Source of the DNA: a virus
Taxonomy: Duplodnaviria > Heunggongvirae > Uroviricota > Caudoviricetes
Strand: one strand, 5' to 3'
Length of the DNA stretch: 64,000 nucleotides
IMG/VR virus record: IMGVR_UViG_3300021599_001517
Coordinates: 18,702 to 82,701 of that record
In this document: positions 5,893-44,773 of the stretch, in pieces
Numbering within the stretch: the stretch's first letter is position 1
How the letters are laid out: every line of letters starts with the position of its first letter
Program-made: the position numbers and the translations under genes
Notes under the pieces: model-generated
Database searches by the model: none
What the model was told of the DNA's origin: nothing
What the model saw: the letters and a program-made list of their open reading frames with translations, nothing else

Positions 5893-5916
5893 AAGCCCCC
5901 TTGGGGGCTTTTCTTT
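5891..5916. terminator. Bidirectional rho-independent terminator (GCCCCC-TT-GGGGGC plus T-run) between the tmRNA and the convergent lipoprotein gene
   Basis: Perfect 6-bp GC stem with a flanking A-run and T-run. Confidence 0.7.
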
Positions 5917-8071: not shown

Positions 8072-8586
8072 TGACTGCTTGGGTAGATCAAATTAAAGAA
8101 ACTATTCCGGACTATGCTAAAGACACTCGTCTTAACATTGATGCAGTAGTTAAGCGTTCTACTCTACCCCAAGAAGAAGCAGAAGCTGTTGCTATCGCAG
8201 CGGCTTTTGCCACAGGTAATAGTAAACTGTGGACTTGGATGCAGAGTCAGGCAATAGATAAGAAAGAAGCTGAAGCAGCAGTTACCGCAGCTAGTCTAAT
8301 GGCCATGAACAATGTATGGTACCCATTCGTTGAAATGGCTGAGGATCCTAATCTAACAGGATTACCGGCACAGTTGCGTATGAACGCAATTACTACACAT
8401 GGCGGCACTACTAAAGCAAGATTTGAAGCATATTCTTTATCTGCTAGTATTGTTGGCAAGTGTCATTTTTGTGTGAAAGCACATTATGAAACACTCAAGC
8501 AAGAAGGATATACAGTAGAACAATTACGTGATATTGGGCGCATAGCGGCAGTTATCACCAGTGTATCCAGAGTACTAAATAGTTAA
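8071..8586 (+). CDS. ahpD: Alkylhydroperoxidase AhpD-family protein (carboxymuconolactone decarboxylase fold)
   Basis: KCHFCVKAH matches the CxxCxxxH AhpD catalytic motif. The start is taken at the ATG in the TAATG overlap with the ahpC stop (the track ORF starts earlier, at 8032). Confidence 0.65.
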   Translation: MTAWVDQIKETIPDYAKDTRLNIDAVVKRSTLPQEEAEAVAIAAAFATGNSKLWTWMQSQAIDKKEAEAAVTAASLMAMNNVWYPFVEMAEDPNLTGLPAQLRMNAITTHGGTTKARFEAYSLSASIVGKCHFCVKAHYETLKQEGYTVEQLRDIGRIAAVITSVSRVLNS

Positions 8587-8626
8587 TCGCCGTAACAGAA
8601 CTGTAATCTTAGGTCTCTTAAATAAG

Positions 8627-8659
8627 AAGGTACAACATAGTGTTGTACCTTTCTTTTTA
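8627..8659 (+). terminator. Rho-independent terminator (AAGGTACAACA-TAG-TGTTGTACCTT plus T-run) after ahpD
   Basis: 11-bp perfect stem followed by TTCTTTTTATT. Confidence 0.65.
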
Positions 8660-8682
8660 TTCACTCACACAAGGAGATTACA

Positions 8683-9708: not shown

Positions 9709-9718
9709 GCAGTACCCA

Positions 9719-9738
9719 CCGCCAGTGATCACTGGCGG
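9719..9738 (+). terminator. GC-rich perfect palindrome CCGCCAGTGATCACTGGCGG (hairpin; partial terminator/attenuator) between pstS and the porin gene
   Basis: 20-bp perfect palindrome followed by an AT-rich stretch. Confidence 0.45.
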
Positions 9739-9760
9739 ATCTATTTTATAAGGATTTAAA

Positions 9761-11173
9761 ATGAAAACATTACTTAAGGTAATGCTGGCGTCATCTGTGA
9801 CAGCATTTATACCTGCACCTGCACACGCAGACGAATACAAAGACACACTTGAAATTCTAAAAAATAAAAATATTCTTACACAGAAAGAATATGATATTAA
9901 ACTTAAAGAATATGAAGAAAAAGAAGAAAACAAAAAGTTTATTGAACAGAGAATTGACAGAGATGTCAGCGACTCAGTCAAATACAGACAGGCCAGAGTT
10001 AATGACGGATCAGTCACAGAAAACGGAATTGGACTCAAAAGCAAAGATGGCGGCAACACCGTCCAGCTTACAGGTCGACTACATATGGACTATCGTCAGT
10101 ACTCCCCGGATTACGGTACAGGTCAAACCACAGATTCGTACCAGAATACTGCTGAAGCACGACGAGCCAGATTTGGAGTAAGAGGTCAGTTTGCCAAAGA
10201 TTTCAAATATCAATTATTAGCAAACTTTGGTGCCAGTGATGGTTTTAGTTCAACATCGAGTACAGCAGATGAAATGTGGGTCAACTATGCTGCAAATCCA
10301 GAAGCACAGTTTCAATTTGGTTTATTCAAGATGCCATTCAGTCTTGAGCAGTTAACAAGTTCAAACAATCTTGACTTTATGGAACGCAGTTTAATTGGTC
10401 AAAATGATACAGAGTTTATACCTGCTAAAGAAACTGGATTTATGTTACATGGTATTCCTAAGCCTGGCTTAACATACGCTCTAGCATTAAGCAGAGGTAA
10501 GAGCAATAAGAGTGCCGAGTTTGATGGCTTTGACTACATTAGTCGTGTAACTACAAACATCGCTGAACTAACCGGAAGCAAAGCATATACAGCACATTTA
10601 GGTGCCGCTTATAGTACAGGTGAAATCAAAAGCGGTGTAGCTCCAGCAAGTGGTAGAACAGAATCACGTATGCAATCAGGATGGTTTACAGGATCTGCTC
10701 TTAGCGGTGCAACTACAAGAACACGTCAAGGCCTCGAAGCTGCATTTGCTTATAATGCATTTAAGGTGCAAGGCGAACATTTTCAATTTAATTATGATCC
10801 TGCAACAGGTAACGATCAGAAAATAAATGGATACTATGTGCAAGCTGTGTATAATCTAACAGGTGAGTCACACTCATATAAAGATGGCGCATTTGGTTGG
10901 ATCAAACCTGCTAATCCTTTGGACAAAGGTGGTCGTGGTGCATGGCAAGTTGGTGTACGTATGAGTGAGTTTGATGCCAGTGACATTACTGTAGCTACCG
11001 GCAAATCAAATCGTGCTACTGCTATGACATATGGTGTTACCTGGTTCTGCACAGACAACCTACGTTTTATGTTAAATTATGTAGACACAAAATTTGATAG
11101 TCTAGTAGGCAGTTCAGGTAGTCGTGTAAACGGCGAACGTGCTGTTATGTTTAGAAGCCAACTAAGTTTTTAA
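9761..11173 (+). CDS. Phosphate-selective porin O/P family outer-membrane protein
   Basis: 470 aa with a signal peptide (AHA-DE cleavage site), an N-terminal charged coiled segment, then an aromatic-rich beta-barrel-like sequence ending ...FRSQLSF, the C-terminal Phe typical of OMPs. The overall pattern matches OprO/OprP-type porins. Confidence 0.6.
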   Translation: MKTLLKVMLASSVTAFIPAPAHADEYKDTLEILKNKNILTQKEYDIKLKEYEEKEENKKFIEQRIDRDVSDSVKYRQARVNDGSVTENGIGLKSKDGGNTVQLTGRLHMDYRQYSPDYGTGQTTDSYQNTAEARRARFGVRGQFAKDFKYQLLANFGASDGFSSTSSTADEMWVNYAANPEAQFQFGLFKMPFSLEQLTSSNNLDFMERSLIGQNDTEFIPAKETGFMLHGIPKPGLTYALALSRGKSNKSAEFDGFDYISRVTTNIAELTGSKAYTAHLGAAYSTGEIKSGVAPASGRTESRMQSGWFTGSALSGATTRTRQGLEAAFAYNAFKVQGEHFQFNYDPATGNDQKINGYYVQAVYNLTGESHSYKDGAFGWIKPANPLDKGGRGAWQVGVRMSEFDASDITVATGKSNRATAMTYGVTWFCTDNLRFMLNYVDTKFDSLVGSSGSRVNGERAVMFRSQLSF

Positions 11174-12366: not shown

Positions 12367-12906
12367 ATGGAAAAAGTAATAAAACCTATAATTTTGATTA
12401 TTGGGTTAGTACTAACAGTAATGTCTATTAAAGCTGTTACAGCCGTAAAACTAAATCAATTAAAACAGACAGCAGGAGTTTCTTATTCTGATGTTGTCAC
12501 AATTCGTGAACGTGAGCGTCAGTTAGATTGCTTGGCTAGAAATATCTATCACGAAGCGGCCAGCGAACCATTTGAGGGTAAAGTTGCGGTAGCACAGGTT
12601 ACAATGAACCGTGCATCCAGCGGCAAATTCCCAAATGATATTTGCGGTGTTATATACCAAAAGAATGTTTTCTATGAAAAAGTAGTTTGCCAATTTAGTT
12701 GGTACTGCGAAGGTCACGGTAAAAGCAAACCAATTCGTAGCAAAGAAATGTACGACGAATCATATCGTGTTGCTAAAAAAGTATTGTTAGAAAACTTTAG
12801 ACTTGACGTTATGAAAGAAGCCATGTATTATCATGCTGATTACGTGAACCCTCAATGGGGTAGAGAAAAGATTGGCAAAATTGGTCGTCATATATTTTAC
12901 AAATAA
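12367..12906 (+). CDS. Cell wall hydrolase, SleB/CwlJ (Hydrolase_2) family, with an N-terminal membrane anchor
   Basis: ...NIYHEAASEPFEGKVAVAQVTMNRA...QFSWYCEGH... is typical of SleB-family lytic enzymes. RBS AAAGGAG. Confidence 0.7.
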   Translation: MEKVIKPIILIIGLVLTVMSIKAVTAVKLNQLKQTAGVSYSDVVTIRERERQLDCLARNIYHEAASEPFEGKVAVAQVTMNRASSGKFPNDICGVIYQKNVFYEKVVCQFSWYCEGHGKSKPIRSKEMYDESYRVAKKVLLENFRLDVMKEAMYYHADYVNPQWGREKIGKIGRHIFYK

Positions 12907-14478: not shown

Positions 14479-15174
14479 ATGGCCTCAGGATTCCAACAAG
14501 ACACAAACCAACTAAGTCCTAATTTTTATAGAGTAACTATTGATCTTAGTGGTTATGATTCCACAGCCGCTAATACGACTTCGGGTAGTGTTGAACCTGA
14601 TAGCGGCGATTCTTTCGCAACAATGAACACAACTTTAGCAAATTCAAGACGTCGTGCTAGAGGTAACTTACGTTGGGAAGCAATTATCAGCAACCTGTCA
14701 AAGCACAGTGATTGCCAAATTTTAGATGTTACTGCTACAGAAGCAGGCCCATCAACTCTAGATGTAGCAGATGATGTTACTACTGCACTTTCTTTCACAG
14801 TTAGATATGATCGTGATGCATTTGTATTGCCTGGTGTTCAAGCTCAGTTAATTGCCGAGGGAAGAATTTCCGGTGGAGCAGCCAAAATGACTGATCATGA
14901 AACTCTTGGCAGTGCAACTAGTTGTACCACAACTGCATTAGCTGTTAAAGAAATGATAGTTCGTGGTATTACTAAAGGATATGCCGATTATCTAACTAAC
15001 GTTTCTACTGCTGTTAATTCATCAACAGACGTATTTCAAAAGTCTGCTAGAGTTTATGACGGCATCGGTGGTGGTCAAGAAACGGTTACAGTTGCATCCC
15101 CAGTAACTCCAAAGGTTGCTCATACTGATGTGACAGTGACACTGGTTGACACAGTTACCTTGGTGAATGCATAA
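14479..15174 (+). CDS. Hypothetical Ala/Thr/Val-rich protein (possibly structural)
   Basis: ORF with an RBS. Locally higher GC. Confidence 0.4.
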   Translation: MASGFQQDTNQLSPNFYRVTIDLSGYDSTAANTTSGSVEPDSGDSFATMNTTLANSRRRARGNLRWEAIISNLSKHSDCQILDVTATEAGPSTLDVADDVTTALSFTVRYDRDAFVLPGVQAQLIAEGRISGGAAKMTDHETLGSATSCTTTALAVKEMIVRGITKGYADYLTNVSTAVNSSTDVFQKSARVYDGIGGGQETVTVASPVTPKVAHTDVTVTLVDTVTLVNA

Positions 15175-16486
15175 TAGCTTAATGCTACTAGCCTATCTAC
15201 TACTACTAACTGGTTTAACAATTTCAGCGGTCGCAATCTACTACTCAGTAGTTGGTTTGGCCGCTATTTTCTCTGCGGCTGTTATTCCTATCTATATTAT
15301 GGGAACAACGTTAGAGGTTGCCAAACTAGTTTGCGCCAGCTGGTTAAAAGCCAACTGGGAACGTGCTCCACGTTTTATGAAATACTACATGAGTATTTCT
15401 GTAGTAGTATTGATGATTATTACTTCTATGGGTATCTTTGGATTTCTGTCAAAGGCACATACCGATCAAAATTTAGTCAGCGGCGATGTACAAAGTAAGA
15501 TTGCTGTGTATGACGAAAAAATTAAAACAGAACGAGATAACATAGACGCAGCCAAGAAAGCTTTGAGCCAAATGGATGCACAAGTTGATCAAATGTTGGG
15601 TCGTACAGACACTGATCGAGGAGCAGAACGTGCTGTACAAATTCGTCGTAATCAAGCAAAAGAACGTGCAGCATTGCAAGCAGATATTGCCAAAGCTCAA
15701 AAAAATATTTCTCAGTTACAAGCAGAACGTTCTCCAATTGCAGCAGAAGTTCGTAAAGTAGAAGCAGAAGTTGGCCCTCTAAAATATATTGCTAAGTTTA
15801 TCTACGGTGATAAAGGTGCCGATGTAAACATGCTAGAGAAAGCTGTTACCTGGGTAATTATCCTTATTGTTATTGTGTTTGATCCATTGGCAGTTATCAT
15901 GTTGTTGGCAGCACAAATGACATTCCAGTGGAATCGCGAACAGAAAAAAGTCAACGATGAAATGCACGATGAGTATGACTTTTCTAATGGAGTAAAAGGT
16001 CCGGTACTTCCACCTGAAGTACCTCCAGCACCTTGGCCATTTCCTGCTAAGATAGATACTCTTGTTGAAGCCGAAGATCGTCATAATGAATCTATTGATC
16101 TAGAAAAAGTTGCGACAGAAAAACCTAACAATGTAGATCCATTTCCGGATGCAACAGTTAATCCTTTAGATACTCCAGATTTTTTGAAAAAAGCTGAAAA
16201 TCGTGTTAAAGAAAAAGTAGAAGAATTGGAAGAAACTCCAATGCCTATTGATCAATGGAATAAAATGATTGAGGAGGCAGAGAAAGCTGCAGAGGAAGAA
16301 GCCAACAGGCTTAAAGAAGAACTAATTGCAACTGAAGAAGCTAAGAAATGGGCTGAGGAAAATCCTCAAACTGAAGAAGCCGAAAAAGCTAAAGAGTGGG
16401 CGGACGAAGAAGAGACCAAAAAAAAAGAGTTGACTTGGTTCGAGAAGGAAGGCAAGGAACAGGTCAAAAAGAGCCGCTTAGAATAG
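15167..16486 (+). CDS. Membrane protein with N-terminal TM helices, a central coiled coil and an E/K-rich C-terminal low-complexity tail
   Basis: Read from the translation. Confidence 0.45.
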   Translation: MHNSLMLLAYLLLLTGLTISAVAIYYSVVGLAAIFSAAVIPIYIMGTTLEVAKLVCASWLKANWERAPRFMKYYMSISVVVLMIITSMGIFGFLSKAHTDQNLVSGDVQSKIAVYDEKIKTERDNIDAAKKALSQMDAQVDQMLGRTDTDRGAERAVQIRRNQAKERAALQADIAKAQKNISQLQAERSPIAAEVRKVEAEVGPLKYIAKFIYGDKGADVNMLEKAVTWVIILIVIVFDPLAVIMLLAAQMTFQWNREQKKVNDEMHDEYDFSNGVKGPVLPPEVPPAPWPFPAKIDTLVEAEDRHNESIDLEKVATEKPNNVDPFPDATVNPLDTPDFLKKAENRVKEKVEELEETPMPIDQWNKMIEEAEKAAEEEANRLKEELIATEEAKKWAEENPQTEEAEKAKEWADEEETKKKELTWFEKEGKEQVKKSRLE

Positions 16487-16767: not shown

Positions 16768-17159
16768 TGAATAAAATTACTTTGGTTACTGAGCCAGATG
16801 ATATACTGGTAGATGCTTTTAGAATATTGTGCGTAAATCTAACCGTAGATCAAACACAGTTTCTTTCTGACATCGTAAATGATATGGAATATATAGTTGA
16901 CACTGTTGTATATGTTTGGAACGATGGAGATGACGAAAAATGGTTATTTGATAAAAAGACAAAAAGTAATCTAATTGTCTTTAATGCAAGTACAGAATGT
17001 GGAGAGATAAATGGATATCTAGCTGCACAACCAAATTCGTTTTATTTTGGTCCTCTCAGAAATTTATCTCTCGTAAATATTAGAGATATATATGATGCAA
17101 CAGATTTTAAAGATACTTTATTAGAATATATCAGGAAATATGAACAAATTTACGAATAA
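16767..17159 (+). CDS. Hypothetical protein
   Basis: ORF only. Confidence 0.4.
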   Translation: MNKITLVTEPDDILVDAFRILCVNLTVDQTQFLSDIVNDMEYIVDTVVYVWNDGDDEKWLFDKKTKSNLIVFNASTECGEINGYLAAQPNSFYFGPLRNLSLVNIRDIYDATDFKDTLLEYIRKYEQIYE

Positions 17160-17379
17160 ACCTTCTGGTAGTGTAGTTACAGTTAAAGATGGCGAAGATA
17201 TTAATCGTGCTCTTAGACGTTTTAAGAAAAAAATAGAAGAATCCGGCACACTTGACACCCTCCGTAAAAAAGAATTTTACGAAAAACCTACTACAGAACG
17301 TAAGCGTAAAAAATCAGCGGCTAAGGCACGTTGGCGCAAACAATTACGTTCACAAGAATTACCACCTAAACTCTATTGA
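17140..17379 (+). CDS. rpsU: Ribosomal protein S21 (bS21)
   Basis: ...INRALRRFKKKIEESGTLDTLRKKEFYEKPTTERKRKKSAAKAR... is nearly a match to bacterial S21 (...ALRRFKR...REFYEKPTTERKR...). Confidence 0.85.
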   Translation: MNKFTNKPSGSVVTVKDGEDINRALRRFKKKIEESGTLDTLRKKEFYEKPTTERKRKKSAAKARWRKQLRSQELPPKLY

Positions 17380-17410: not shown

Positions 17411-17992
17411 ATGAACTCAGATATAATGATAGACCTCGAAACCCTTGCCACCACTCCTGATGCTGCAATTTTAAGTATTGGCGCAGTGAAATTTGATCCG
17501 TTTGGGCAAGAATTAAAAGAACCAGCAATGGAAAGTTTTTATCTACGTGTAGATATTGACAGTTGTGATCGGTTAGGATTAGCTACATCACAAGATACTC
17601 TTGAATGGTGGGCAAAACAAAGTCAAGCAGCTCAAGACGAAGCATTTGGAACCGAAGGTAGAGTTGATATTGTTAGTGCTATGAATCAACTTTATAAATT
17701 CTGTTGGGGTGCTAAACGTGTATGGAGTCACGGTGCTGGCTTTGACGTTGTTATTTTAGAAACAGTATTTCGCAAAATGGGAAAAGGTTACCCTTGGAGT
17801 TTCTGGCAAGTAAGAGATACTAGAACAATTTTTGATCTTGGTATCAATCCAGACCGCCCTGAAGTATTAGCTCACCATGCGTTACACGATTCTTATAATC
17901 AAGCAATTGGTGTGCAAAATGTTTTCCGTAGATTGCGAACATCGTCGACATTAGACGGCCAATTGCTTTCTCCATTAAAGGATTCAAGATGA
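17411..17992 (+). CDS. DEDD-family 3'-5' exonuclease (RNase T / Rv2179c-like)
   Basis: IMIDLETL...[10 protein letters not shown]...HHALHDSYN correspond to exo motifs I-III (DEDDh). Confidence 0.6.
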
Positions 17993-19068
17993 GAATCGAA
18001 GATGAAATCAAATTAGATTTCAAAGATGTTCTTATTCGTCCTAAGCGCAGTACTTTATCAAGTCGCAAAGAAGTTGACTTAACAAGGACTTACAAATTTA
18101 AACACAGTCGCGCCGAGTGGACAGGAGTTCCGATTATGGCCAGTAACATGGACGGTGTTGGTACACTAGAAATGGCTCATGCTCTATATCAACACAAAAT
18201 GTTCACTTGCCTAGTTAAGAATATCAGTACGGTATACTTTGAAACAACCGTACAAGATATAGGAGGCAATCATTTCGCAGTAAGCACAGGGACTTCCGAA
18301 AAGGACTTTGAAAGATTAAGTAACATACTTAATTCTTATTCCGAAATAAAATTTATCTGTATAGATGTAGCAAATGGATATAGCGAACACTTCGGGGACT
18401 ATGTAGAAGAAGTGCGTGAGGCATTTCCTAATCACACAATTATCGCAGGTAACGTTGTTACCGCAGACATGACACAGGAGTTAATTTTACGTGGAGCAGA
18501 TATTATCAAAGTGGGCATTGGTCCAGGCAGTGTTTGTACAACTAGGATACAAACTGGCGTCGGTTATCCTCAGCTCAGTGCTATTATTGAGTGTGCTGAC
18601 GCTGCTCATGGTCTCGGCGGCCATATTATTGCTGATGGTGGTTGTGTGTGTCCCGGTGACATTGCTAAGGCGTTTGGCGCCGGAGCAGACTTTGTAATGT
18701 TAGGAGGCATGTTAGCCGGTCATGATGAGGGCGGCGGTGAAGTTATTGAAGAAATGCACGAACTTTCAAAACTTCAAAAAGATATGTTTTCAAATGATTA
18801 TGAAATTAAAAAATATGTAGAATTCTATGGAATGAGTTCAAATACTGCTATGAACAAGCATCATGGTGGCATAGCTGAATATCGTTCATCAGAAGGACGT
18901 ACGGTAAGAGTACCGTATAAGGGCCCGGTCCAAAGTACAATTTTGGATATGTTGGGCGGACTGCGTAGTTCTTGCACATATGTAGGTGCTGCAAGTCTTA
19001 AACAATTATCTAAATGTACTACATTTATTAGGGTCAATATGCAATTTAATGATGTCTTTACGAGATAA
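17989..19068 (+). CDS. guaC: GMP reductase
   Basis: Collinear with E. coli GuaC ([24 protein letters not shown]...F..., ...[21 protein letters not shown]...), plus one short insertion. Confidence 0.9.
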
Positions 19069-19149: not shown

Positions 19150-21063
19150 ATGTCAAAAATCATCGGTATCGATTTGGGTACCACAAACTCATGTGTAGCT
19201 GTTATTGAAAACGGCAAATCCAAAGTAATTGAAAACTCAGAAGGCGCAAGAACAACTCCGAGTATTGTTGCTTATACAGACAGCGATATTTTAGTAGGTG
19301 CTTCAGCAAAGCGTCAGGCGGTAACTAATCCCAAAAACACAATTTATGCATCTAAGCGGTTAATTGGACGTAAGTTCAATGAACAGGCTGTTCAGAAGGA
19401 CATTGACCTAATGCCTTATGAAATTGTCAAGGCAACAAATGGTGATGCTTGGATTCGCGCACAAGGAAAAGAAATGGCACCTCCACAGGTGTCTGCAGAA
19501 GTTCTTCGCAAGATGAAAAAGACTGCAGAGGACTATTTAGGGCATGAAGTTACACAGGCTGTTATTACAGTGCCTGCTTACTTCAATGATAGTCAAAGAC
19601 AGGCAACTAAAGATGCCGGTCAAATCGCTGGCTTAGAAGTTCTACGTATTATTAACGAACCTACTGCGGCTGCATTAAGCTACGGTGTTGACAAGACAGA
19701 CAAAGCTGATCGTAAGATTGCGGTGTATGACTTAGGTGGTGGCACATTTGATATCAGTATCATTGAGATTGCCAACGTCGAAGGCGACAAACAAATTGAA
19801 GTATTGTCAACAAACGGCGATACATTCTTAGGCGGTGAAGACTTTGACCAGCGCATTATGGATTATCTGGTTGAGGAATTTAAGAAAGAGCAAGGCATTG
19901 ATCTAACTAAAGATATGTTGGCACTACAACGTCTTAAGGACTCTGCTGAAAAAGCTAAGATTGAATTATCTAATTCTACACAAACTGAAGTTAATCTTCC
20001 ATACATTACTGCCGATGCTAGTGGTCCTAAACATCTAGTGGTAAAAATTACCAAGGCAAAATTGGAACAGTTAGTTGACGATTTAATTCAACGTTCATTA
20101 GAACCTTGTCGTATTGCTATGAAAGATGCCGGAGTTACCGCAGATCAGATCGACGAAGTTATTCTAGTTGGCGGCCAAACTCGCATGCCAAAGGTACAAG
20201 AAGAAGTAGAACGTTTATTTGGAAAAGCGCCACGTAAAGATGTTAACCCAGACGAAGCAGTAGCAGTTGGTGCTGCTATCCAAGGTGCTGTGTTGGGTGG
20301 TGATCGTAAAGATGTCCTATTGTTAGATGTTACTCCATTAACTTTGGGTATTGAAACAGTAGGCGGTGTAATGGCCAAACTGGTTGCTAAGAATACTACT
20401 ATTCCAACTAAGGCAAATCAAATTTTCAGTACAGCTGATGACAATCAACCTGCTGTTACTATTCGTGTGTTCCAAGGAGAACGCGAATTGGCACATCATA
20501 ACAAATTGTTAGGCGAATTTAATCTTGAAGGTATTGATCCAGCACCACGTGGTATGCCTCAAATTGAAGTTACATTTGATATTGATGCTAATGGTATTTT
20601 AAGCGTAAGTGCCAAAGACAAAAATACTGGTAAAGAAAATAAAATTACCATTAAAGCTAATAGCGGCATTACTGAAGATGAAATCAAACGTATGATCGCT
20701 GAAGCAGAACAATATGCAGAAGAAGATAAAAAAGCACGTGAAGTTATTGAAACACGTAATGGTGCATTATCTGAACTGTATACAATTCGCAGAGAATTAG
20801 AAGCAGAAAAAGATCTTGCTACAGAAGAAGAATGGAAAATAATTGAAGATGCACTAGAGGCTGCTGAAAAATTAGTCAATGATAATAGTGACATTGAAGA
20901 AATTAAGAAAGGTCCTTTCAATGTAGCCGATGCTGCAAAACCTTTGTTTGAAAAAATTAAAGCCAAACGCGAAGCTGCCAAAGCAGAACAATCTGCACCG
21001 CAGCCAACTGATGGTGAAGTGATCGATGCTTCCTTTACAGCAACTGAAGGCAAGGCATCTTAA
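19150..21063 (+). CDS. dnaK: Molecular chaperone DnaK (Hsp70), full length
   Basis: [22 protein letters not shown] and the complete NBD plus SBD. Start taken at the ATG after the AAGGAG RBS (the track starts at 19114). Confidence 0.95.
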
Positions 21064-21084
21064 GAATACACATATGTGTGTATA

Positions 21085-21113
21085 ATGTTGCGGTACCTAA
21101 TGGGCCGCAACAT
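21085..21113 (+). promoter_or_regulatory. Hairpin ATGTTGCGG-TACCTAATGGG-CCGCAACAT in the hsp20 upstream/5'-UTR region, immediately after a TATAAT (21080-21085)
   Basis: 9-bp stem. The loop contains CTAATGGG. Confidence 0.35.
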
Positions 21114-21154
21114 TGAGCATAAAGCTCATATTCTTACTTTAAAAGGAGATTAAT

Positions 21155-21592
21155 ATGAATAATAATCAGTTAGCACAAATTACAGCTCTTAACAGAGCTC
21201 TTATTGGATTTGACACACTGTTTGATCAAATGGAAAGACGTTTTTCTAATAGTGTATCTAATAACTATCCACCTCACAACATTCTTAAAACTGGTGAAAA
21301 TCAGTATGAGATTCAATTAGCAGTTACTGGATTTGATAAAACAGAAATTTCTGTTACTGTAGAGGACGGAATTCTTATTGTTAAAGGTGAAAGCATGGCT
21401 ACAGATCATGCGCCAGAACAATACATTCATCGCGGTCTTGCTACTCGCGATTTTGTTAAAGAATTTCCTCTAGCAGAACATATTGAAGTTACTGGAGCGG
21501 AAACCAAAAATGGTATGTTAACCATTAAGTTGGTCCGTAATGTTCCAGAGTCTGCGAAACCGAAAGTCATTGACATTGTAGACATTAAGTAA
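21155..21592 (+). CDS. ibpA: Small heat-shock protein (Hsp20/alpha-crystallin, IbpA-like)
   Basis: ...YPPHNILKTGENQYEIQLAVTGF...ISVTVEDGILIVKGE... matches the IbpA/B pattern. Confidence 0.85.
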   Translation: MNNNQLAQITALNRALIGFDTLFDQMERRFSNSVSNNYPPHNILKTGENQYEIQLAVTGFDKTEISVTVEDGILIVKGESMATDHAPEQYIHRGLATRDFVKEFPLAEHIEVTGAETKNGMLTIKLVRNVPESAKPKVIDIVDIK

Positions 21593-21597
21593 TATAA

Positions 21598-21623
21598 TTA
21601 AGGGGAAGGAAACTTCCCCTTAA
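21598..21623 (+). terminator. Perfect 11-bp inverted repeat TTAAGGGGAAG-GAAA-CTTCCCCTTAA after hsp20
   Basis: Read directly from the sequence. No strong T-run. Confidence 0.45.
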
Positions 21624-21641
21624 TTAACCTACAGAGGAAAT

Positions 21642-21950
21642 ATGGCAGACGTAGAAACTAAAATCAAAGAAGTAACAAAGACAGTTGAAACTCAACCACC
21701 CAATCATTGGAAGGTAGTATTCTTAAACGATGATTATACTCCCATGGAATTTGTTGTTGCTCTTTTGGTTACTATTTTTAGGCACAGTGAACAATCTGCC
21801 GAGCAGATCACAATAGAAATACACAACACGGGCAGTGCTGTTGTTGGTTTATACACACACGAAATTGCAGAACAAAAGTCTATTGATGCAACAACCGTTT
21901 GCAGACAACACGGTCATCCTTTACAAATTACAATCGAAGAAGACAAATAA
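21642..21950 (+). CDS. clpS: ATP-dependent Clp protease adaptor ClpS
   Basis: ...HWKVVFLNDDYTPMEFVV..L...F... matches ClpS. Confidence 0.85.
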   Translation: MADVETKIKEVTKTVETQPPNHWKVVFLNDDYTPMEFVVALLVTIFRHSEQSAEQITIEIHNTGSAVVGLYTHEIAEQKSIDATTVCRQHGHPLQITIEEDK

Positions 21951-22218: not shown

Positions 22219-22785
22219 ATGAGTTTAAAAGAAATTACCAAAGATCTTCATCACGAAGCAGAAACAACCCAATTTGCTAAGATGTTACTTAGCGGAAAAA
22301 TTACTAAAGAAGATTATGCCAACTACCTTTATCAGTTAGTATTAATTTATAATGCTATAGAGTTAGGTAATCGAGTAGAAGGCAATTTTAAAAATCTTCC
22401 TGGTTTAGAAAGAACACACGCAATCTATCAAGACTTTATTGAGATCGCAGGTGTTGATCACAATTACAAATGGTTACCTGGAACTATAGACTATTACAAC
22501 TATCTCTTAAATTTAGTTCGTGATCCTGCGCATCGTCCTAAAATCAAAGCTCATCTATATTGTCGACATATGGGAGATCTGTATGGTGGTCAAATAATTA
22601 AAAAACAAGTAGCACATATTAGCAAAGGTCGTTTTTATGATTTTAAAGATGCAGATGCATTAAAAATGTCCATACGTGCAGAACTAACTGATGACCTAGG
22701 AGACGAAGCAAGAGTTGCGTTTGAATGGGCCATTAAAATGATGAGAGAATTGTATAATGAGTCAGGTCTGGAACAGTCTAATTGA
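22219..22785 (+). CDS. ho1: Heme oxygenase (HO-1 family)
   Basis: N-terminal L..HH.AE and HLYCRHMGDLYGGQ (compare HAYTRYLGDLSGGQ). Confidence 0.85.
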   Translation: MSLKEITKDLHHEAETTQFAKMLLSGKITKEDYANYLYQLVLIYNAIELGNRVEGNFKNLPGLERTHAIYQDFIEIAGVDHNYKWLPGTIDYYNYLLNLVRDPAHRPKIKAHLYCRHMGDLYGGQIIKKQVAHISKGRFYDFKDADALKMSIRAELTDDLGDEARVAFEWAIKMMRELYNESGLEQSN

Positions 22786-23437
22786 AATACAAAAACTGTT
22801 AGAAAAAAGATTTTCAGAGACAGGCATTGAAACTTTTGAGCCCGGAATGGAAAGATTTAATCAACCGGGTTGGGTAAATAGAGTTTGGTGCAGCGATCAT
22901 TATCGCAGAGCTCATGTCGACGTAGTTGACGCCCGATCCTCAAAGGGCCTTTGGATGATGCATTGCTGCATCTTTCCTCACATACACAATCCTGCTCCTA
23001 TTTTTGGATTTGATGTAATTGCAGGAAAAAATAAAATCACAGGTTGTTTTATAGACTACAGCCCAACAGCTGATAAACAGCATCCTATGATCGAATATTT
23101 TGCTGAAGAAGTCAGTAGATACGAATGGATCCGCAAACGTGAACTACCTGAATGGGCGCAACGTATATTCAGTTCACACATGGTGGCCGCTGGCAATGTG
23201 CAAGAAGAATCAGAATTATCTCAAATTAGCGGTCTAGCGAACATTCTAGTAAATCATTATTTAGAAACAGTAGGCGAAACAAATCACAAAGTTGCAGATA
23301 CAACGTTTGAGCAAAATTATTACGCACAGAATCAAAAACAAAATCCGCACACCCCTAGAGTTATGGTTAGTTTGGGGCTTAGTGAAGAAGATGTTAAGCA
23401 TTTTATTCAAGATTGTTTATTTCCAGAAATAAACTAA
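22757..23437 (+). CDS. Ferredoxin-dependent bilin reductase (PebS/PcyA/PcyX family)
   Basis: ...YRRAHVDVVD...WMMHCCIFP...PIFGFDVIAG...GCFIDYSP... is the Fe_bilin_red pattern. It is adjacent to heme oxygenase. Confidence 0.75.
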   Translation: MSQVWNSLIEIQKLLEKRFSETGIETFEPGMERFNQPGWVNRVWCSDHYRRAHVDVVDARSSKGLWMMHCCIFPHIHNPAPIFGFDVIAGKNKITGCFIDYSPTADKQHPMIEYFAEEVSRYEWIRKRELPEWAQRIFSSHMVAAGNVQEESELSQISGLANILVNHYLETVGETNHKVADTTFEQNYYAQNQKQNPHTPRVMVSLGLSEEDVKHFIQDCLFPEIN

Positions 23438-34560: not shown

Positions 34561-34792
34561 ACTTAAACAAGTTTTAGCTACAAGATCTCGAGCTGTCTTT
34601 AGTTATCGTATCAACTTTGACACAATAGGATATGAATCTTTAGATCTCATGAGAAAGTGGTGTGAAGATAATTGCTCTGGACTTTGGCGATTAGAGCATG
34701 TCCACGCACTATATTTTCAATTTGAAAACGACAGAGATGCTACAATGTTTATGCTACGTTGGGGCGGAGCAGAAGGAAATAGATTGAAATGA
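34490..34792 (+). CDS. 'LKW'-family small protein (start uncertain; core ...WCEDNCSGLW...FQFENDRDATMFMLRWGG...)
   Basis: Shares the W[CM].E...F.F.NE.DA..F.LKW domain with 7 neighbouring genes. Confidence 0.4.
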   Translation: MLIGLLRNTMEENGLPNDIELGTKLKQVLATRSRAVFSYRINFDTIGYESLDLMRKWCEDNCSGLWRLEHVHALYFQFENDRDATMFMLRWGGAEGNRLK

Positions 34793-34795
34793 GAG

Positions 34796-35014
34796 GTGGG
34801 CATGACATATACTGTAGAAAAATTTTCCTTACCTAATAATTTACATGAATGGTTAATTCATGATTATGAAACGAATTTTTTAGGTCCAGGTAAACGATAT
34901 CCAAAAAATTATTCAGATCAATATAAAAAAAGATATAATTGTCATTATGATTGTCATTATTATACATTTGACTCAGAAAAAGATTATATGTTATTTTTGT
35001 TAAAATGGTCATGA
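34796..35014 (+). CDS. 'LKW'-family small protein (...DSEKDYMLFLLKWS)
   Basis: Has the family C-terminal motif. Its terminal codons embed the next gene's ATG. Confidence 0.5.
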   Translation: MGMTYTVEKFSLPNNLHEWLIHDYETNFLGPGKRYPKNYSDQYKKRYNCHYDCHYYTFDSEKDYMLFLLKWS

Positions 35015-35403
35015 TTTATTCTTGGCAAAAAGAGATATTAGAAAAAATGACGCAGTACAAAGGTAAAGGTATGACAACAATTACTGGACGCAAGTTAGGC
35101 AAGAGTGCCTTTTCTGCTCAGGCTTTTCAACGACTGTGGGAAGATCTTCATGCTCGCCCGGTGGAAGATCTTAAGCTCACAGAAGGCACAGTCTACGGTG
35201 CTAGATATTATTGTGTAGAACCAGTTGGTGGAGTATGGCGAGAAATGGAAGCGTGGTGTGTCGAAACATTTGGTTCAGTTGGGGAACACATGTGGGGTAA
35301 CGAGAAAGCACCAGACCCTGCACAGCGTTGGTACATGAACAATCGCAAGTTCTGGTTCCACAATGAAGTAGATAGAATGGTGTTTGTATTAAAATGGCGA
35401 TAA
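35005..35403 (+). CDS. 'LKW'-family protein (...EAWCVETFG...NEVDRMVFVLKWR)
   Basis: Starts at the ATG inside the upstream AAATGG. Confidence 0.5.
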   Translation: MVMIYSWQKEILEKMTQYKGKGMTTITGRKLGKSAFSAQAFQRLWEDLHARPVEDLKLTEGTVYGARYYCVEPVGGVWREMEAWCVETFGSVGEHMWGNEKAPDPAQRWYMNNRKFWFHNEVDRMVFVLKWR

Positions 35404-37161: not shown

Positions 37162-37383
37162 ATGTTAGTAGTATATCTCGATGATTCAAAAATAGTCTAC
37201 GATAGATCCTTAGAATATTTTCAAACAGCGGCAGATTGGGCCAAAGCTCAATGTCAAAGTTTTGTTGACTATCATGTTCAAGATGTTTCAGATGTATCAA
37301 TGATGTTCGATCACGTGGCAGAATATCGATTTAAAGATTCTAAAGATGTTTTAATGTTTCAATTAAAATGGAAAACCAATTGA
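37162..37383 (+). CDS. 'LKW'-family small protein (...AADWAKAQCQSF...KDSKDVLMFQLKWKTN)
   Basis: Family motif. Confidence 0.5.
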   Translation: MLVVYLDDSKIVYDRSLEYFQTAADWAKAQCQSFVDYHVQDVSDVSMMFDHVAEYRFKDSKDVLMFQLKWKTN

Positions 37384-37439
37384 CTTTTGAAGTTAATGAG
37401 TATATAATTAACTTGTTTAATAATATATAGGTAACTTAA

Positions 37440-37850
37440 ATGAAAATTGGTTTTAGTTTTGGACGCTGTATTCGTGACATCGTTAACGGTGATGTTGAAC
37501 TCGAAGATGTTGCATTTATTATTGCAGCAACTTGTATGCATGACGAGAAGCATGTACGTAATGTTATTCTTAACTATCTAACAGAACCTAGTTATCTCCT
37601 TGGCTACAATGAAAAAGATTGCATGGAAGTAGGTCTTGCACTTTGGAATCAAAACAAAGTTCTACAACCTCGCAAACAGGGAATACCAAGACATGCCCAA
37701 CCAGAAAATGCAGTTTGGGTTGATATCTTTCCTACATCTCATTCCGACAGCGAAGCAGTAAAAACTGCTTGGGATCAATATCGCTTTATGTTACATATGG
37801 TTGAAAATGTAGACACTGAAGCTATCGATGTTTTTAAAGAACCTTATTAA
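37440..37850 (+). CDS. Hypothetical protein
   Basis: ORF only. Confidence 0.4.
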   Translation: MKIGFSFGRCIRDIVNGDVELEDVAFIIAATCMHDEKHVRNVILNYLTEPSYLLGYNEKDCMEVGLALWNQNKVLQPRKQGIPRHAQPENAVWVDIFPTSHSDSEAVKTAWDQYRFMLHMVENVDTEAIDVFKEPY

Positions 37851-37852
37851 CA

Positions 37853-38125
37853 ATGTTTAGATTATTTTTTAATATCAGCAATCCCTGGAGCGATCGTTGG
37901 GAGAACATCAAACAGTGGTCTGGAACTACTCCTTTTAAACACAAGTTTTGGGAAGCGCAGATTGATAAAACTCATGATGTTATAGGTGTTGATATACAAT
38001 ACAGTGTTCGACAAGATCATGCAGGAATATTCCTGTGCCTGGCATTTTTGGGCTATGAAGTAATTTTTAATTTTTACGATAGCAGGCACTGGGATCATGA
38101 AACCAATAATTGGGCAAAAGATTAA
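37853..38125 (+). CDS. Hypothetical protein
   Basis: ORF only. Confidence 0.35.
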   Translation: MFRLFFNISNPWSDRWENIKQWSGTTPFKHKFWEAQIDKTHDVIGVDIQYSVRQDHAGIFLCLAFLGYEVIFNFYDSRHWDHETNNWAKD

Positions 38126-38196
38126 GTGCGCAGTTAATTAAATATGTATGAAATCTAAACTCTAGATAAGTACATAGTTAATCAAATGGAGCATTT

Positions 38197-38754
38197 GTGA
38201 AAAAAATCGAGGACTTCAATGCCGAAGATCGTATTGATATCGAACTACTCGGAAACAGTATACATTTCTTAGTGGGAGAAATAAATGAGGACACGATCAA
38301 AAGTGCTATAAAATGGATTGTTTACGAAAACCTAGAGTCAAAGGAAAAAACATTAACTTTATACGTTAATTCAACAGGCGGTGATCTTTATCAAGCATTT
38401 GCCTTAATTGATGTAATGCGTAGCAGTAATCACACAATTAGAACTGTTGGTATCGGTGCTGTAATGAGTGCAGCATTTTTAATTTTTGCCAGCGGTGATC
38501 AAGGTGAAAGATACGCAGCTCGTAATACTAGTTTTATGTGTCATCAGTTTTCAGAAAGTATGGATAACAAATATCATGACCTTAAAGCTACTATGCGAGA
38601 AAATGATTTATGTAATGAAAAAATGGTACAAATATTAAAAGACGCTACAGGACTTGCTCCTAGCGTAGTCAAAAAGAAATTACTGCCCGCCAGTGATGTT
38701 TATCTATCATCCCAGGAAGTCATAGATCTCAACGTTGCAGATCATCTGTTATAA
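38197..38754 (+). CDS. clpP: ClpP-family serine protease (S14)
   Basis: Collinear with E. coli ClpP: LYVNSTGG (LYINSPGG), [14 protein letters not shown] (catalytic Ser block), MCHQF (His) and [16 protein letters not shown] (Asp). Confidence 0.7.
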
Positions 38755-38756
38755 AT

Positions 38757-38975
38757 ATGTCTAAAGAAGATATTATTAAGTTCGACGGAACTATTGTAGA
38801 AGTTCTGCCCAACACAACTTATCGTGTAAAATTAGCAGATACCCAAACAGTAGTATATGCTTATTCTAGCGGTAAAATTAGGAAGAACAACATTAAAATT
38901 CTGTTAGGTGATACAGTAACTTTGGAGTTTAGCCCCTATGACCTTTCCAAAGGAAGGATTGTTTACCGAAAATAA
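38757..38975 (+). CDS. infA: Translation initiation factor IF-1
   Basis: [72 protein letters not shown] is nearly identical in pattern to bacterial IF-1 (S1-like OB fold). Confidence 0.9.
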
Positions 38976-39606
38976 AATAATTGATCCGAATAGGGTAATA
39001 GTATATCTCACGGATAGACTGTTAACTACTGAAAAAATAAGTTCTGAGGAACTGATCAAAATCCTCAAAAAAATGTTACCTTCTAAAACTAAAATTAAGG
39101 TAACTTATCAAAGATCAAAAATTACCAAAGACTGTTTTGGAATAAATGGTTTTTTTGATTCTGATTATGTTAGAGATATAGAGTTACAGATCTGCTGCTC
39201 TAGCTTTAAAAAGAAATTCCCCATTACAGAAGATCTAAAGCAACAGTTAATTTACGATGTTGCTGATACGCTCTGTCACGAAACTATACACAGACGTCAA
39301 TTTTATCTTCGAGGAGATTGTGCAAGCATTGACGAAACTGGGGATCGTCAAAGAGATTATTATCTAGATCCAGATGAAATGTTTGCTTATTCAGTAAACA
39401 TAGCACATAATCTTCACCGTAAATATGGAGTTGATGCACTAAAACATCTTTGCGATATAAACAGCGCAGTTAAAGATGACTGTTATCTAGCGGATTATTA
39501 TTACTGGTTTTATAACGATTATCCGTTTAAACGCTTATTAAAAATGATAGCACAAAATTTAGAAGCTATAAATCAGGGTGAAGTTTGCCATCGCTCTTTA
39601 ATTTGA
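38938..39606 (+). CDS. Hypothetical protein with an HExxH motif ([10 protein letters not shown]); possible zinc metallopeptidase. The start overlaps infA and is uncertain.
   Basis: ORF plus motif only. Confidence 0.3.
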
Positions 39607-39643
39607 ATTGCGATAAATATTACATCAAAACGGATTTTTAAAT

Positions 39644-40573
39644 ATGCAACCAGTACAAATAGCTATGTCGGGAGTTACTCCCGGAACTTATGGAAACAAC
39701 ACCCAGATTCCTTCTTTCACAGTTGATGCTAGAGGTAGACTAGTATGGGCTGCAAATGTTGATATTCAATCAACATTTAAATTTAAGGTTAATGATGACG
39801 ATAGAATTGAAACCGTTAATTTAAGTAATGATTCATTCAATTTTAGAAGTGGACATGGAATCAATATAACACCGGCACCAGACGGAATTAATATTGATTT
39901 TGATAGATCAATAATTCCCGATACTAGTGACTTTGTTAGAAAATCAGAAACATCTCATCAATTTTTAGGATCTATAAGATCTCCGTTAATTTATTCTCAA
40001 GAAGGAATATTTGATTCAGTTACTACAAAAGAAATATTAATAGATGGTGTATATACTAGATTTCAAACAAAAGGGTTCCATGTAGATTTTACAGACTTTG
40101 ATGTTCTTGATTCTAAAGTTTTTCAAATCGATGGAATTTCAAAAAATACTAATACTGAAACAGCAAATTTTAATGTTGATATTACATCTTCTTGGTTAAA
40201 ATTCACCAGTCAAATTGAACTTCCTAATTCTGCTTTAAGTTTTCCAGATGGCCATGCTTTGGGAATTATTTCTTTTCAAGATGGCGGAATTGAAATGGGA
40301 TATGGTGCAGGATTAATTGCTATCAAAAATTTTAATAATGATGGATCTTCACCGACAGGAATTTGCGTTATTACTTCAAATGGGAAAGATGATATTTTTG
40401 AAAATCCAACAAAGTTTAACTTTGGTGGCGACGGAGTATTTGAAGCACCAATTTTAAAAACAAAAAGCTATACAAGTTTGCCAGATAATCCCAAAGAAGG
40501 TTGGATAGTATTTGATGGCAACAACAAACAATTTAAAGGGTGGAACGGAACTAGTTGGATAACTTTAGGATAA
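39644..40573 (+). CDS. Hypothetical protein (possibly a virion fibre/receptor-binding protein); last gene of the + strand block
   Basis: ORF. Asn/Gly/Thr-rich beta-type sequence. Confidence 0.35.
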   Translation: MQPVQIAMSGVTPGTYGNNTQIPSFTVDARGRLVWAANVDIQSTFKFKVNDDDRIETVNLSNDSFNFRSGHGINITPAPDGINIDFDRSIIPDTSDFVRKSETSHQFLGSIRSPLIYSQEGIFDSVTTKEILIDGVYTRFQTKGFHVDFTDFDVLDSKVFQIDGISKNTNTETANFNVDITSSWLKFTSQIELPNSALSFPDGHALGIISFQDGGIEMGYGAGLIAIKNFNNDGSSPTGICVITSNGKDDIFENPTKFNFGGDGVFEAPILKTKSYTSLPDNPKEGWIVFDGNNKQFKGWNGTSWITLG

Positions 40574-43733: not shown

Positions 43734-44420
43734 ATGGTAAAAAAATTTAATTCAGTTCTAGCATTTGGAGATAGTCATGTTGCTGGATGTGAATTATCAA
43801 ATCAATATACTTTTGAAGATTATACCAGAGGTAAAATAACAATAGAACAAGCAGATGATTCTGGAAAAAAATTAGCCTTTCCTCAAGTGGTTGCTGATAA
43901 ATTAAATATTCCTTGTTATAATTATGCAATGACTGGCGGAAGTAATGCTCGTAGTCTAAGATTATTAGTCAACGCATTACAAGAACATCCAAATAGTTTA
44001 GTATTGTTTGGGTATACATGTACAGATAGAACAGAATTTTACTATCCAGACGTTGGCAATTTCTTAGGTAGAGATAAAGATAAATTCATACAAGTTGGTA
44101 TGCAATGGAAAGGTAAGGTTGATGGAACCATGATTCATCCAATTAACGATCTGTTTGTTAATGAAATGCTTCGTCCTTATAATAATTTAAATGAATTAAT
44201 GTTTATAGTAGATAATTTATGTACAGGATGGGCTACTGATTTTTTACATTTACCGTTGTTTCCAGAAATTATACCAAAGGTAGATAATGTTTTTAATTTT
44301 GAAAGTTGTGAGAATTATGTAAATTGGTGTGAATTCAAAATGTATAAAAAATTACCATTTTATCATTACGATCAAGAAGCACATAATAATTTGGCTAGAT
44401 TAATTCTTGAGGAGTTATAA
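43734..44420 (+). CDS. SGNH/GDSL-like hydrolase (putative)
   Basis: N-terminal AFGDSHVAG (block I), ...TGGSNA..., C-terminal ...DQEAHN. Confidence 0.4.
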   Translation: MVKKFNSVLAFGDSHVAGCELSNQYTFEDYTRGKITIEQADDSGKKLAFPQVVADKLNIPCYNYAMTGGSNARSLRLLVNALQEHPNSLVLFGYTCTDRTEFYYPDVGNFLGRDKDKFIQVGMQWKGKVDGTMIHPINDLFVNEMLRPYNNLNELMFIVDNLCTGWATDFLHLPLFPEIIPKVDNVFNFESCENYVNWCEFKMYKKLPFYHYDQEAHNNLARLILEEL

Positions 44421-44773
44421 TGTCTTGGGGTTATCATATTATGTTAGATTGTGCCGGTTGTGATTTAAAAAAAATTAAAGATAAAGATCACATATGGGCA
44501 TTTGTATATACATTAATAAAACGTGTTGAAATGGAAGCGCACGGAAAAATGATCATTGAAAATTTATTACCAGGAACAGACAATGAAGGATATAGTGTAT
44601 TACAAATGATTACTACAAGTAATATAAATTGTCATTTTGTAAACAAGACTGCTGATGCTTATATTGATTTGTTTAGCTGTAAAGAATTTAAAGCAGAAAT
44701 AGTTATTGCTACTGTTAAAGAATTTTTTAATCCAACCAGCATCAAATTAAACTTTGTAGAAAGACAGGCTTAG
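44420..44773 (+). CDS. S-adenosylmethionine decarboxylase-like protein (SpeH / class 1b AdoMetDC fold)
   Basis: Aligns with B. subtilis SpeH (GRHVISELWGCD / GYHIMLDCAGCD; ...ESHLTIH.FPE.GYA..DV.TCG / ...TSNINCHF......AYIDLFSCK), but has Thr-Ser where the self-cleaving Glu-Ser lies. Confidence 0.5.
   Translation: MSWGYHIMLDCAGCDLKKIKDKDHIWAFVYTLIKRVEMEAHGKMIIENLLPGTDNEGYSVLQMITTSNINCHFVNKTADAYIDLFSCKEFKAEIVIATVKEFFNPTSIKLNFVERQA

Follow-up and report, generated by a model that had tools for sequence, protein, structure and literature searches.

A conserved gene for translation initiation factor IF-1 in a lineage of large aquatic tailed phages

Introduction

When a tailed phage carries a gene for translation initiation factor 1 (IF-1), is that gene a working part of the phage or a stray piece of its host? 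The question is raised by a 64,000-nucleotide stretch of viral DNA (positions 18,702 to 82,701 of the IMG/VR record IMGVR_UViG_3300021599_001517), here called the window, to whose first letter all coordinates refer, and which bears an infA homologue. To our knowledge, phage-encoded initiation factors have been catalogued since 2020 and none has been functionally tested. Huge phages encode IF1, IF3, S21, S1, S4, L7/L12 and transfer-messenger RNAs (tmRNAs), a repertoire interpreted as intercepting or redirecting host translation (PMC7162821, 2020).

Here we report that the window IF-1 is no stray host DNA but a gene that an entire phage lineage has long conserved, and that it is under strong purifying selection. 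We consider it likely that the gene encodes a functional orthologue, which would bind the A site of the host 30S subunit together with host IF2 and IF3 and would supply or bias initiation during infection. The lineage is one of large aquatic tailed phages, whose relatives reach approximately 351 kb. The features of the window that bear on these points are listed in Table 1.

Results

Identity and fold of the window IF-1

A first-pass annotation, made from the sequence alone, had proposed a full-length infA homologue at this locus, and profile searches bore this out. The product matched the NCBIfam equivalog TIGR00008 (infA) over the whole model (positions 1-69 of 69) at 98.9 bits (cut-off 61.15, E = 1e-28) and the Pfam family eIF-1a (PF01176) over residues 8-71 at 74.7 bits (cut-off 30.2, E = 4e-21); judged as sequence matches, these scores lie far above chance. 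The closest solved structure by sequence was E. coli IF1 (E = 7e-22, 59-60% identity in a full-length alignment), relative to which the window protein has a single additional residue, in the turn between strands beta2 and beta3.

An AlphaFold model built from 42 homologues (predicted local distance difference test, pLDDT, 84.6) showed a five-stranded, S1-like OB barrel with one short helix, the strands spanning residues 7-17, 21-26, 32-37, 53-58 and 65-71 and the helix residues 39-43. This model superposed on E. coli IF1 as found in the 30S-IF1-IF3 complex (9fco_I) with a TM score of 0.92-0.95 and a root-mean-square deviation of 0.9 Å over 71 columns, at 59% identity.

Predicted contacts with the 30S subunit and a clade-specific signature

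In T. thermophilus numbering, IF1 contacts helix 44 through P18, R23, R41 and R46, the 530 loop through K2 and G38, and uS12 through Y60 and D61, with R66 also in the published contact list (bioRxiv 10.1101/2023.10.27.564398). All of these residues are kept in the window protein, bar R46, which is replaced by lysine. Moreover, within a clade of 69 phage IF-1 sequences (see below), P18, R23, G38, R41, Y60, D61, R66 and R70 are invariant, and K2 is present in 66. Lysine at position 46 is fixed in the clade and is also found in 22 of the 66 labelled cellular sequences.

Positions 16, 22, 44 and 49 also distinguish phage from cellular proteins. Valine occupies position 16 in 68/69 phage sequences and in 1/99 cellular ones, whilst position 22 is tyrosine in 59/69 of the phage clade and phenylalanine in all 99 cellular sequences. 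At position 44 the phage proteins have asparagine (62/69), where tyrosine or phenylalanine is found in 59/66 labelled cellular and 30/33 cellular-type sequences. Position 49 is not proline in the phage clade; it is proline in 52/66 labelled cellular sequences and threonine in 27/33 cellular-type sequences. The signature of the phage clade is V16, Y22, N44 and K46. The 30S-binding surface itself is preserved, with a few consistent changes beside the decoding-centre contacts.

These residues bear on whether the protein would act mainly in 30S initiation or would instead serve phage transcripts as an antiterminator or as an RNA chaperone of the cold-shock kind. RNA chaperone activity is known for E. 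coli IF1, which can replace cold-shock proteins, and the modelled OB fold, which resembles S1 and cold-shock domains, would suit such a role. So would a cold or temperate-water habitat, for which the Tara scaffold of a marine relative is the sole basis here. However, Y60, D61 and G38, and very nearly K2, are conserved as ribosome binding predicts, although generic RNA binding has no need of these uS12 and 530-loop residues, and the infA equivalog is matched end to end. We therefore regard an RNA chaperone or antiterminator as unlikely and favour a factor that would act on the 30S subunit.

Phylogeny and selection

A homologue search over 5.8 billion proteins returned two groups of top matches. 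The first bears the phage signature with NNIK(I/V)L, and every genomic context that was readable was phage-like. The second carries the proteobacterial pattern ETLPNTTFRV...NYIRILTGD at 63-69% identity to the window protein and includes sequences from named metagenome-assembled genomes of Gammaproteobacteria or Pseudomonadota; one sequence of the group lies on a 927-kb contig. Sequences of the P0029 type were considered as the IF-1 of a SAR11 host and rejected, as their Tara scaffold context is phage-like. In a scan of GTDB, the best cellular identity among the matches listed was 63%; these matches, which are dominated by the C-terminal pattern KGRIVYRK, were used as labelled outgroups and not as an answer to the nearest host.

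Whether infA would cluster with host or with phage sequences had been left by the first-pass annotation as a question for phylogeny. In a neighbour-joining tree of 200 distinct IF-1 sequences (71 columns), all syntenic phage IF-1 fell into the clade of 69, which contained no labelled cellular and no cellular-type sequence, and a clade with this property was recovered in 72 of 100 bootstraps; with only 71 columns, moderate support of this kind is expected. Amongst deposited phages the gene is rare, being present in only 36 of 50,697 records, mostly Lak megaphages, the huge phages of Al-Shayeb et al. and Bacteroides DAC phages, with a few that look like bacterial contamination. This agrees with the earlier view that the window carries more translation genes than most phages. 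The window protein is 45-59% identical to other huge-phage IF-1, and a nucleotide search of window positions 36-42 kb against the same 50,697 records gave no match.

Closer relatives, though no further copy of this phage, were found in IMG/VR. Four diverged contigs of 58-107 kb (L007-L010) keep the order of ClpP-like gene, IF-1 and a 222-residue protein, at 47-73% protein identity, and also retain many of the surrounding small open reading frames (ORFs). The adjacency of the ClpP-like gene and IF-1 is kept in these four and in a fifth locus, L116. The trio is found, together with a convergent radical S-adenosylmethionine (radical-SAM) cluster, on contigs of 351,065 and 351,068 bp, whose IF-1 is 71% identical to that of the window. 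In these relatives, the large contigs that encode IF-1 also encode DnaK and the upstream structural protein. In a second sub-lineage, represented by many IMG/VR contigs and by one Tara Oceans scaffold, a full-length IF-1 is located elsewhere in the genome, after homologues of window genes 12367, 12916 and 11695.

Synonymous sites of IF-1 are saturated between sub-lineages, whilst the proteins are still 55-71% identical. Where it could be estimated, the ratio of nonsynonymous to synonymous substitution rates (dN/dS) was 0.03-0.23, and it was 0.07-0.08 in two pairs with dS < 1. IF-1 is under strong purifying selection. Its GC content is 0.34 and its third-position GC content (GC3) 0.30, the GC3 of neighbouring genes being 0.21-0.27. 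The residence of the gene in phages has been long enough to saturate synonymous sites and to gain both phage base composition and clade-specific residues.

Smaller cultured relatives are without IF-1, which could mean that the gene was captured, has no part in infection and is being lost. However, IF-1 is intact in all relatives examined, its contact residues are invariant, its position and overlaps are conserved, and the low dN/dS is not that of a decaying gene; a neutral passenger is very improbable on these grounds. Most simply, the gene would have been acquired once, long ago, from a proteobacterium, then inherited vertically and moved a single time within the phage family; two captures are a possible alternative.

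Phage origin of the window

The window DNA is that of a phage, and neither host sequence nor a chimera. The exact IF-1 protein was found on contigs in 46 blocks of a public assembly collection, the longest of 211,818 bp, so that the genome of this phage is at least that long; contigs of this class also carry the exact S21 protein and several neighbouring proteins. Collinear loci that match the window at 99.7-100% identity come from seven independent assemblies (JGI 3300008111, 3300008262 and 3300042691; ENA ERZ27247987, ERZ27247995 and ERZ27248008; NCBI GCA_031545195.1), which cover the tmRNA, S21 and IF-1 regions. JGI 3300008111 and 3300008262 are presumably Lake Erie plankton samples.

Coding sequence takes up approximately 95% of the window; most of it consists of small ORFs without a family match, arranged in same-strand runs. 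Phage lysis and tail genes lie within it: an endolysin, and a protein with a gp5-like domain that is 39-49% identical to gp5 homologues of Caulobacter phage Cr30 and Methylophilales phage Melnitz. A 439-residue membrane protein resembles one of Pelagibacter phage Mosig and is also common to jumbo phages including XacN1, RsoM2USA and SCTP-2. Moreover, between 5 and 10 kb upstream of the window, the same contig encodes a tail-spike-like protein, a virion structural protein (phrog_14154) and a phage exonuclease.

The first-pass annotation had named a host-phage chimera, with the translation genes on host DNA, as the outcome that would undo its reading. Some features might suggest as much: DnaK shares 67-69% identity with its gammaproteobacterial counterparts, genes of cellular type are numerous (ribonucleotide reductase, PstS, porin, AhpC, GMP reductase), and no capsid, portal or terminase gene was recognised with PHROGs and Pfam in the approximately 88 kb inspected (the window with about 15 kb to its left and 9 kb to its right), which is itself part of contigs of 138-212 kb. 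However, the recurrence of the same gene order in seven assemblies speaks against a chimeric join, which would not be reproducible in this way. The infA, rpsU, ssrA and dnaK genes all lack their usual bacterial neighbours, with no ribosomal or aat context at infA, and base composition is uniform around the translation genes. Among cellular-type sequences, the closest IF-1 reaches no more than 63-69% identity, and the relatives are IMG/VR viral contigs. It is scarcely credible, then, that infA, rpsU and ssrA lie on bacterial sequence, whether through a join or because the whole contig is bacterial.

Gene neighbourhood and expression

The gene directly upstream of IF-1 had been described as ClpP-like, and its match to Pfam agrees with this. 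It ends in CTG TTA TAA, and 2 nt separate its stop from the IF-1 ATG (junction TAAATATG). The protein scored 87.9 bits against PRK00277 (cut-off 249), 70.4 against TIGR00493 (cut-off 308.6) and 51.7 against the head-maturation-protease model NF045542 (cut-off 120). As it lies under every curated NCBIfam cut-off for ClpP and for head-maturation proteases, the gene is classed as ClpP-like only. In an alignment to 3q7h, serine (GAVMSAA), histidine (MCHQF) and aspartate (ASDVYL) occupy the positions of the Ser-His-Asp triad. A head-maturation protease was considered for this gene and not adopted, since genuine ClpP models score higher, the neighbours are non-structural and the NF045542 score is below its cut-off.

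No Shine-Dalgarno motif (AGGA or GGAG) was found in the 20 nt before the IF-1 ATG. Across the genes of this phage, such motifs show an approximately 6-fold enrichment in the upstream sequence, and about 40% of the genes have one. Together with the 2-nt spacing, this suggests termination-reinitiation, and IF-1 is probably translationally coupled to the ClpP-like gene.

At its 3′ end, IF-1 overlaps the gene for the 222-residue protein, whose ATG arises within the codons for the invariant Tyr60-Asp61 of IF-1 (TAT GAC), with a GGAG near the Glu56 codon. The 38-nt overlap is kept in 5/5 diverged relatives. Homologues of the 222-residue protein at 46-67% identity occupy the same position in L008, L009, L010 and L116, and both an ADTLCHExxHR motif and a further block of residues are invariant among them. 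No family match was found for it in Pfam, PHROGs, NCBIfam or a PDB profile search; its single PADLOC match (E = 0.007) is not significant, and a single-sequence AlphaFold model (pLDDT 37.5) was unusable.

The ORF that follows, of 309 residues, is found in the same position in L001-L006 and has a 284-residue counterpart in L116; its only PHROG matches are weak and of unknown function. Upstream of the ClpP-like gene, and probably in the same transcription unit, are two small ORFs of 136 and 90 residues, with homologues in L007-L009 at 46-65% identity and no match in Pfam, PHROGs or NCBIfam. A 56-nt gap before the first of them, the only sizeable upstream intergenic gap, contains a candidate promoter. 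Taken together, these genes would form a putative six-gene unit on the plus strand (37440-40573) that contains IF-1.

The arrangement invites a further explanation, in which a re-tuned IF-1 (V16, Y22, N44, K46) has co-evolved with its ClpP-like and HExxH (zincin-like) partners, and these proteases remove or disable a component of host initiation or an A-site defence factor, after which the phage IF-1 would take over and favour phage mRNAs. The tight, overlapping order in at least five diverged genomes could be read in this way, as could the location of the clade-diagnostic residues, which adjoin helix-44 contacts, and the presence of ClpS in the phage. Moreover, Clp genes are found near infA elsewhere. 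In E. coli K-12 (NC_000913.3, 922,913-927,432) the order is clpS-clpA-serW-infA-aat; in the unrelated huge phage Phosso it is ClpP-like, MutT, IF-1, with one gene between; and in Lak-A1 a ClpP-like ORF is found 4.4 kb upstream of IF-1. If this explanation were true, these three neighbourhoods would reflect a functional link between Clp proteolysis and IF-1; they may be coincidence or a real link.

However, adjacency of phage genes often reflects expression timing and not joint function. The second sub-lineage has its IF-1 without a ClpP-like gene in the 4-20 kb around it, and no ClpP-like gene was found within 6 kb of IF-1 in three other huge phages. K46 is a normal cellular variant, and the HExxH protein has no recognisable family. 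We judge a protease-assisted takeover to be quite improbable and retain the reading of an IF-1 that would serve phage initiation alongside host IF2 and IF3.

S21, tmRNA and proteostasis genes

Two further translation genes claimed for the window, bS21 and a permuted tmRNA, were both recovered with scores above threshold (Table 1). The bS21 homologue has an N-terminal extension of approximately 9 residues (MNKFTNKPSG), the alignment with bacterial bS21 beginning at residue 13. Directly 3′ of rpsU (17411-19068) are a gene of the Rv2179c-like 3′-5′ exoribonuclease family and one of the GMP reductase/IMPDH family.

The two-piece tmRNA was detected by ARAGORN and exceeded the gathering thresholds of the Rfam models RF04321 (tmRNA_permuted, 152.6 bits, gathering 47) and RF01850 (beta_tmRNA, 135.9 bits, gathering 84). 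Its tag peptide is unusually long at 28 residues and ends in ALAA. The last 10 residues of the tag resemble an ordinary proteobacterial tag, and a second, ANDN-initiated segment precedes them. Neither ARAGORN nor Rfam detected a tRNA or any additional translation gene within the window.

A DnaK gene, an IbpA-like small heat-shock gene and a ClpS gene form a block (19150-21950) with no DnaJ or GrpE gene adjoining DnaK. Relatives of this DnaK at 78-87% identity are found on contigs of the same family, including one of 295,302 bp that also encodes IF-1. A homologue search with DnaK for host assignment returned metagenome proteins only, many from this same phage family.

Other cargo

From 40551 to the end of the window, mostly on the minus strand, and for approximately 9 kb beyond it (L028), there is an unusually dense cluster of radical-SAM genes, at least 11 in number, some of which encode B12-binding or SPASM domains. 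The cluster also holds several Asp/Arg beta-hydroxylase-like genes and genes for a 2-oxoglutarate-Fe(II) oxygenase, a SAM methyltransferase, a class-III aminotransferase and a PIG-L deacetylase. It is conserved in L009 and L116, and its GC content of 0.28-0.35 is below that of the window's left half. The cluster is remarkable for a phage, and may be a pathway for modification of peptides (akin to ribosomally synthesised and post-translationally modified peptides) or of glycans or nucleotides.

At 22219-23437, a heme oxygenase gene adjoins a gene for a ferredoxin-dependent bilin reductase. This auxiliary pair is best known from cyanophages; the tmRNA of the same phage fits the betaproteobacterial model. 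A stress and phosphate run (7538-11173) encodes an AhpC peroxiredoxin, a protein of the carboxymuconolactone-decarboxylase family, a PstS-like protein and a porin.

Compared with three metagenome contigs (L029, L114, L115), the window is without 167 bp in the gene for the large subunit of ribonucleotide reductase (nrdA, at about 1587), resulting in a frameshift: the nrdA ORF stops at 1592, and a remnant ORF (1679-1834) bears the original C-terminus. In the small-subunit gene nrdB (at about 2141), a further 54 bp are missing without a change of frame. Either the strain has a disrupted nrdA or the assembly is at fault here. An indel hot spot was observed at approximately 34,792-35,038, where contigs of different samples that are 99.9% identical differ by about 250 bp and in their set of small ORFs.

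Table 1. Coordinates of the window features discussed in the text.
Feature	Coordinates	Strand	Evidence or remark
gp5-like baseplate-hub/tail-lysozyme domain protein	3588-4616		phrog_894, phrog_430
Two-piece (circularly permuted) tmRNA	~5454-5935	+	ARAGORN; tag ANDNAFDFTAMSFTGNTVANDSKFALAA
PstS-like phosphate-binding protein	8683-9708		
Phosphate-selective porin O/P	9761-11173		Outer-membrane porin, unusual phage cargo
Endolysin	12367-12906		phrog_938, E = 1e-22
439-residue membrane protein	15167-16486		44% identity to Pelagibacter phage Mosig protein, E = 1e-48
rpsU homologue (bS21)	17140-17379	+	TIGR00030 66.8 bits (cut-off 28.95), Pfam, phrog_21469
DnaK	19150-21063	+	Pfam HSP70, 838 bits
IbpA-like small heat-shock protein	21155-21592	+	Pfam HSP20; NCBIfam IbpA below cut-off
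ClpS adaptor	21642-21950	+	Pfam ClpS; NCBIfam ClpS below cut-off
Candidate sigma-70-like promoter	37380-37408	+	TTGACT-17-TATAAT, 11/12, best of region (consensus scan)
Two small conserved ORFs (136 and 90 residues)	37440-38125	+	Upstream of ClpP-like gene
ClpP-like serine protease gene	38197-38754	+	Pfam CLP_protease 103.8 bits, E = 1e-29
infA homologue (IF-1)	38757-38975	+	ATG to TAA, 72 residues, full length
Conserved 222-residue HExxH protein	38938-39606	+	First 38 nt overlap the IF-1 3′ end
309-residue ORF	39644-40573	+	Last gene of putative unit; head-on against minus-strand radical-SAM cluster
AdoMet decarboxylase	44420-44773		Within radical-SAM cluster

Discussion

The data point to an IF-1 that would occupy the A site of the host 30S subunit in the manner of host IF1, with IF2 and IF3 contributed by the host. 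By raising the ratio of IF1 to ribosomes, the phage protein might allow 30S initiation complexes to keep forming, or to form faster, on phage mRNAs as host expression declines, and the very large coding load of such a phage would be served by a maintained supply of initiation factor. Expression would be by termination-reinitiation from the ClpP-like gene within the six-gene unit. Alongside bS21, tmRNA, DnaK, Hsp20, ClpS and the ClpP-like protease, IF-1 might belong to a toolkit for keeping up translation and protein quality control. The host is probably proteobacterial.

Several points weigh against this interpretation. All of its functional steps are inferred from sequence. N44 (aromatic in approximately 90% of cellular proteins), V16, Y22 and K46 lie on or beside the face towards helix 44, and could mean that function has been altered and not preserved. 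The relatives Mosig and Melnitz, which have S21 and tmRNA, do without IF-1, and the factor is therefore not generally required. The affinities of the tmRNA (for which the beta model is best), DnaK, S21 and IF-1 point only loosely to Gammaproteobacteria or Betaproteobacteria as host. Promoter-like sites are not commoner in the region than in shuffled sequence, so that the candidate promoter is a lead. To these may be added the lack of recognised capsid, portal and terminase genes in the sequence inspected, noted above.

That IF-1, S21 and tmRNA together are a trait of large phages, as the first-pass annotation had stated, accords with the published hallmark of huge phages (PMC7162821); the further statement that such phages remodel host ribosomes is a hypothesis of the literature. 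Phage IF-1 was already reported in 2020, and S21 with a two-piece tmRNA is known from pelagi- and methylo-myophages. What appears to be new is that IF-1 is anciently held, under purifying selection, in a widespread lineage of large aquatic phages, where it has a clade-specific residue signature and a conserved ClpP-like/IF-1/HExxH arrangement that is probably translationally coupled. The locus offers a clean comparative set, in which an old and selected gene has a signature beside the decoding centre and a conserved operon context, and the small size of the protein (72 residues) makes it an entry point for testing whether huge phages redirect host translation.

Comparison with known systems

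The window IF-1 is like bacterial IF-1 (E. coli 1AH9 and 9FCO chain I; T. thermophilus 1HR0) in its length of 72 residues, its single OB fold and the residues that contact helix 44, the 530 loop and uS12. It differs in context, being phage-borne between ClpP-like and HExxH genes, whereas the setting of E. coli infA is cellular. The eukaryotic and archaeal factors eIF1A and aIF1A (PF01176) share its OB core and likewise occupy the A site of the small subunit (Foldseek TM score 0.79-0.84, 16-26% identity). However, the window protein has neither the helical subdomain of eIF1A nor its N- and C-terminal tails, and is clearly of bacterial type by sequence.

Amongst phages, the huge phages (Al-Shayeb et al. 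2020; Lak, Jug, Phosso) also encode full-length IF-1 together with other translation genes such as S21 and tmRNA, and in the gut Jug phages IF-1 is a conserved core gene (PMC12880540). The best match amongst deposited phages, at 59%, was the annotated IF-1 of the cultured Sinorhizobium phage Phosso (469 kb; gp175, PV764938), which has the signature EVLPNTT..KNNI.ILLGD in common with the window protein; its ClpP-like protein is likewise among the best phage matches to that of the window. Compared with these other huge phages, the present lineage is aquatic and uncultured, and its IF-1 is probably coupled directly to a ClpP-like gene and is overlapped by the next gene.

The aquatic T4-like myophages Mosig and HTVC008M of Pelagibacter and the methylophage Melnitz carry rpsU and a permuted ssrA as the window does (bioRxiv 10.1101/2021.08.24.457595), and the gp5-like tail-lysozyme domain of the window is 49% identical to that of Melnitz. 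However, these phages are of approximately 141-147 kb and are without IF-1. The tmRNA of Melnitz bears a glutamine riboswitch, whereas an Rfam search found none at the window tmRNA, which, as a further difference, scores best on the betaproteobacterial model. Thus the S21 and two-piece-tmRNA toolkit of pelagi- and methylophages is extended by IF-1, DnaK, Hsp20 and ClpS in far larger, uncultured relatives.

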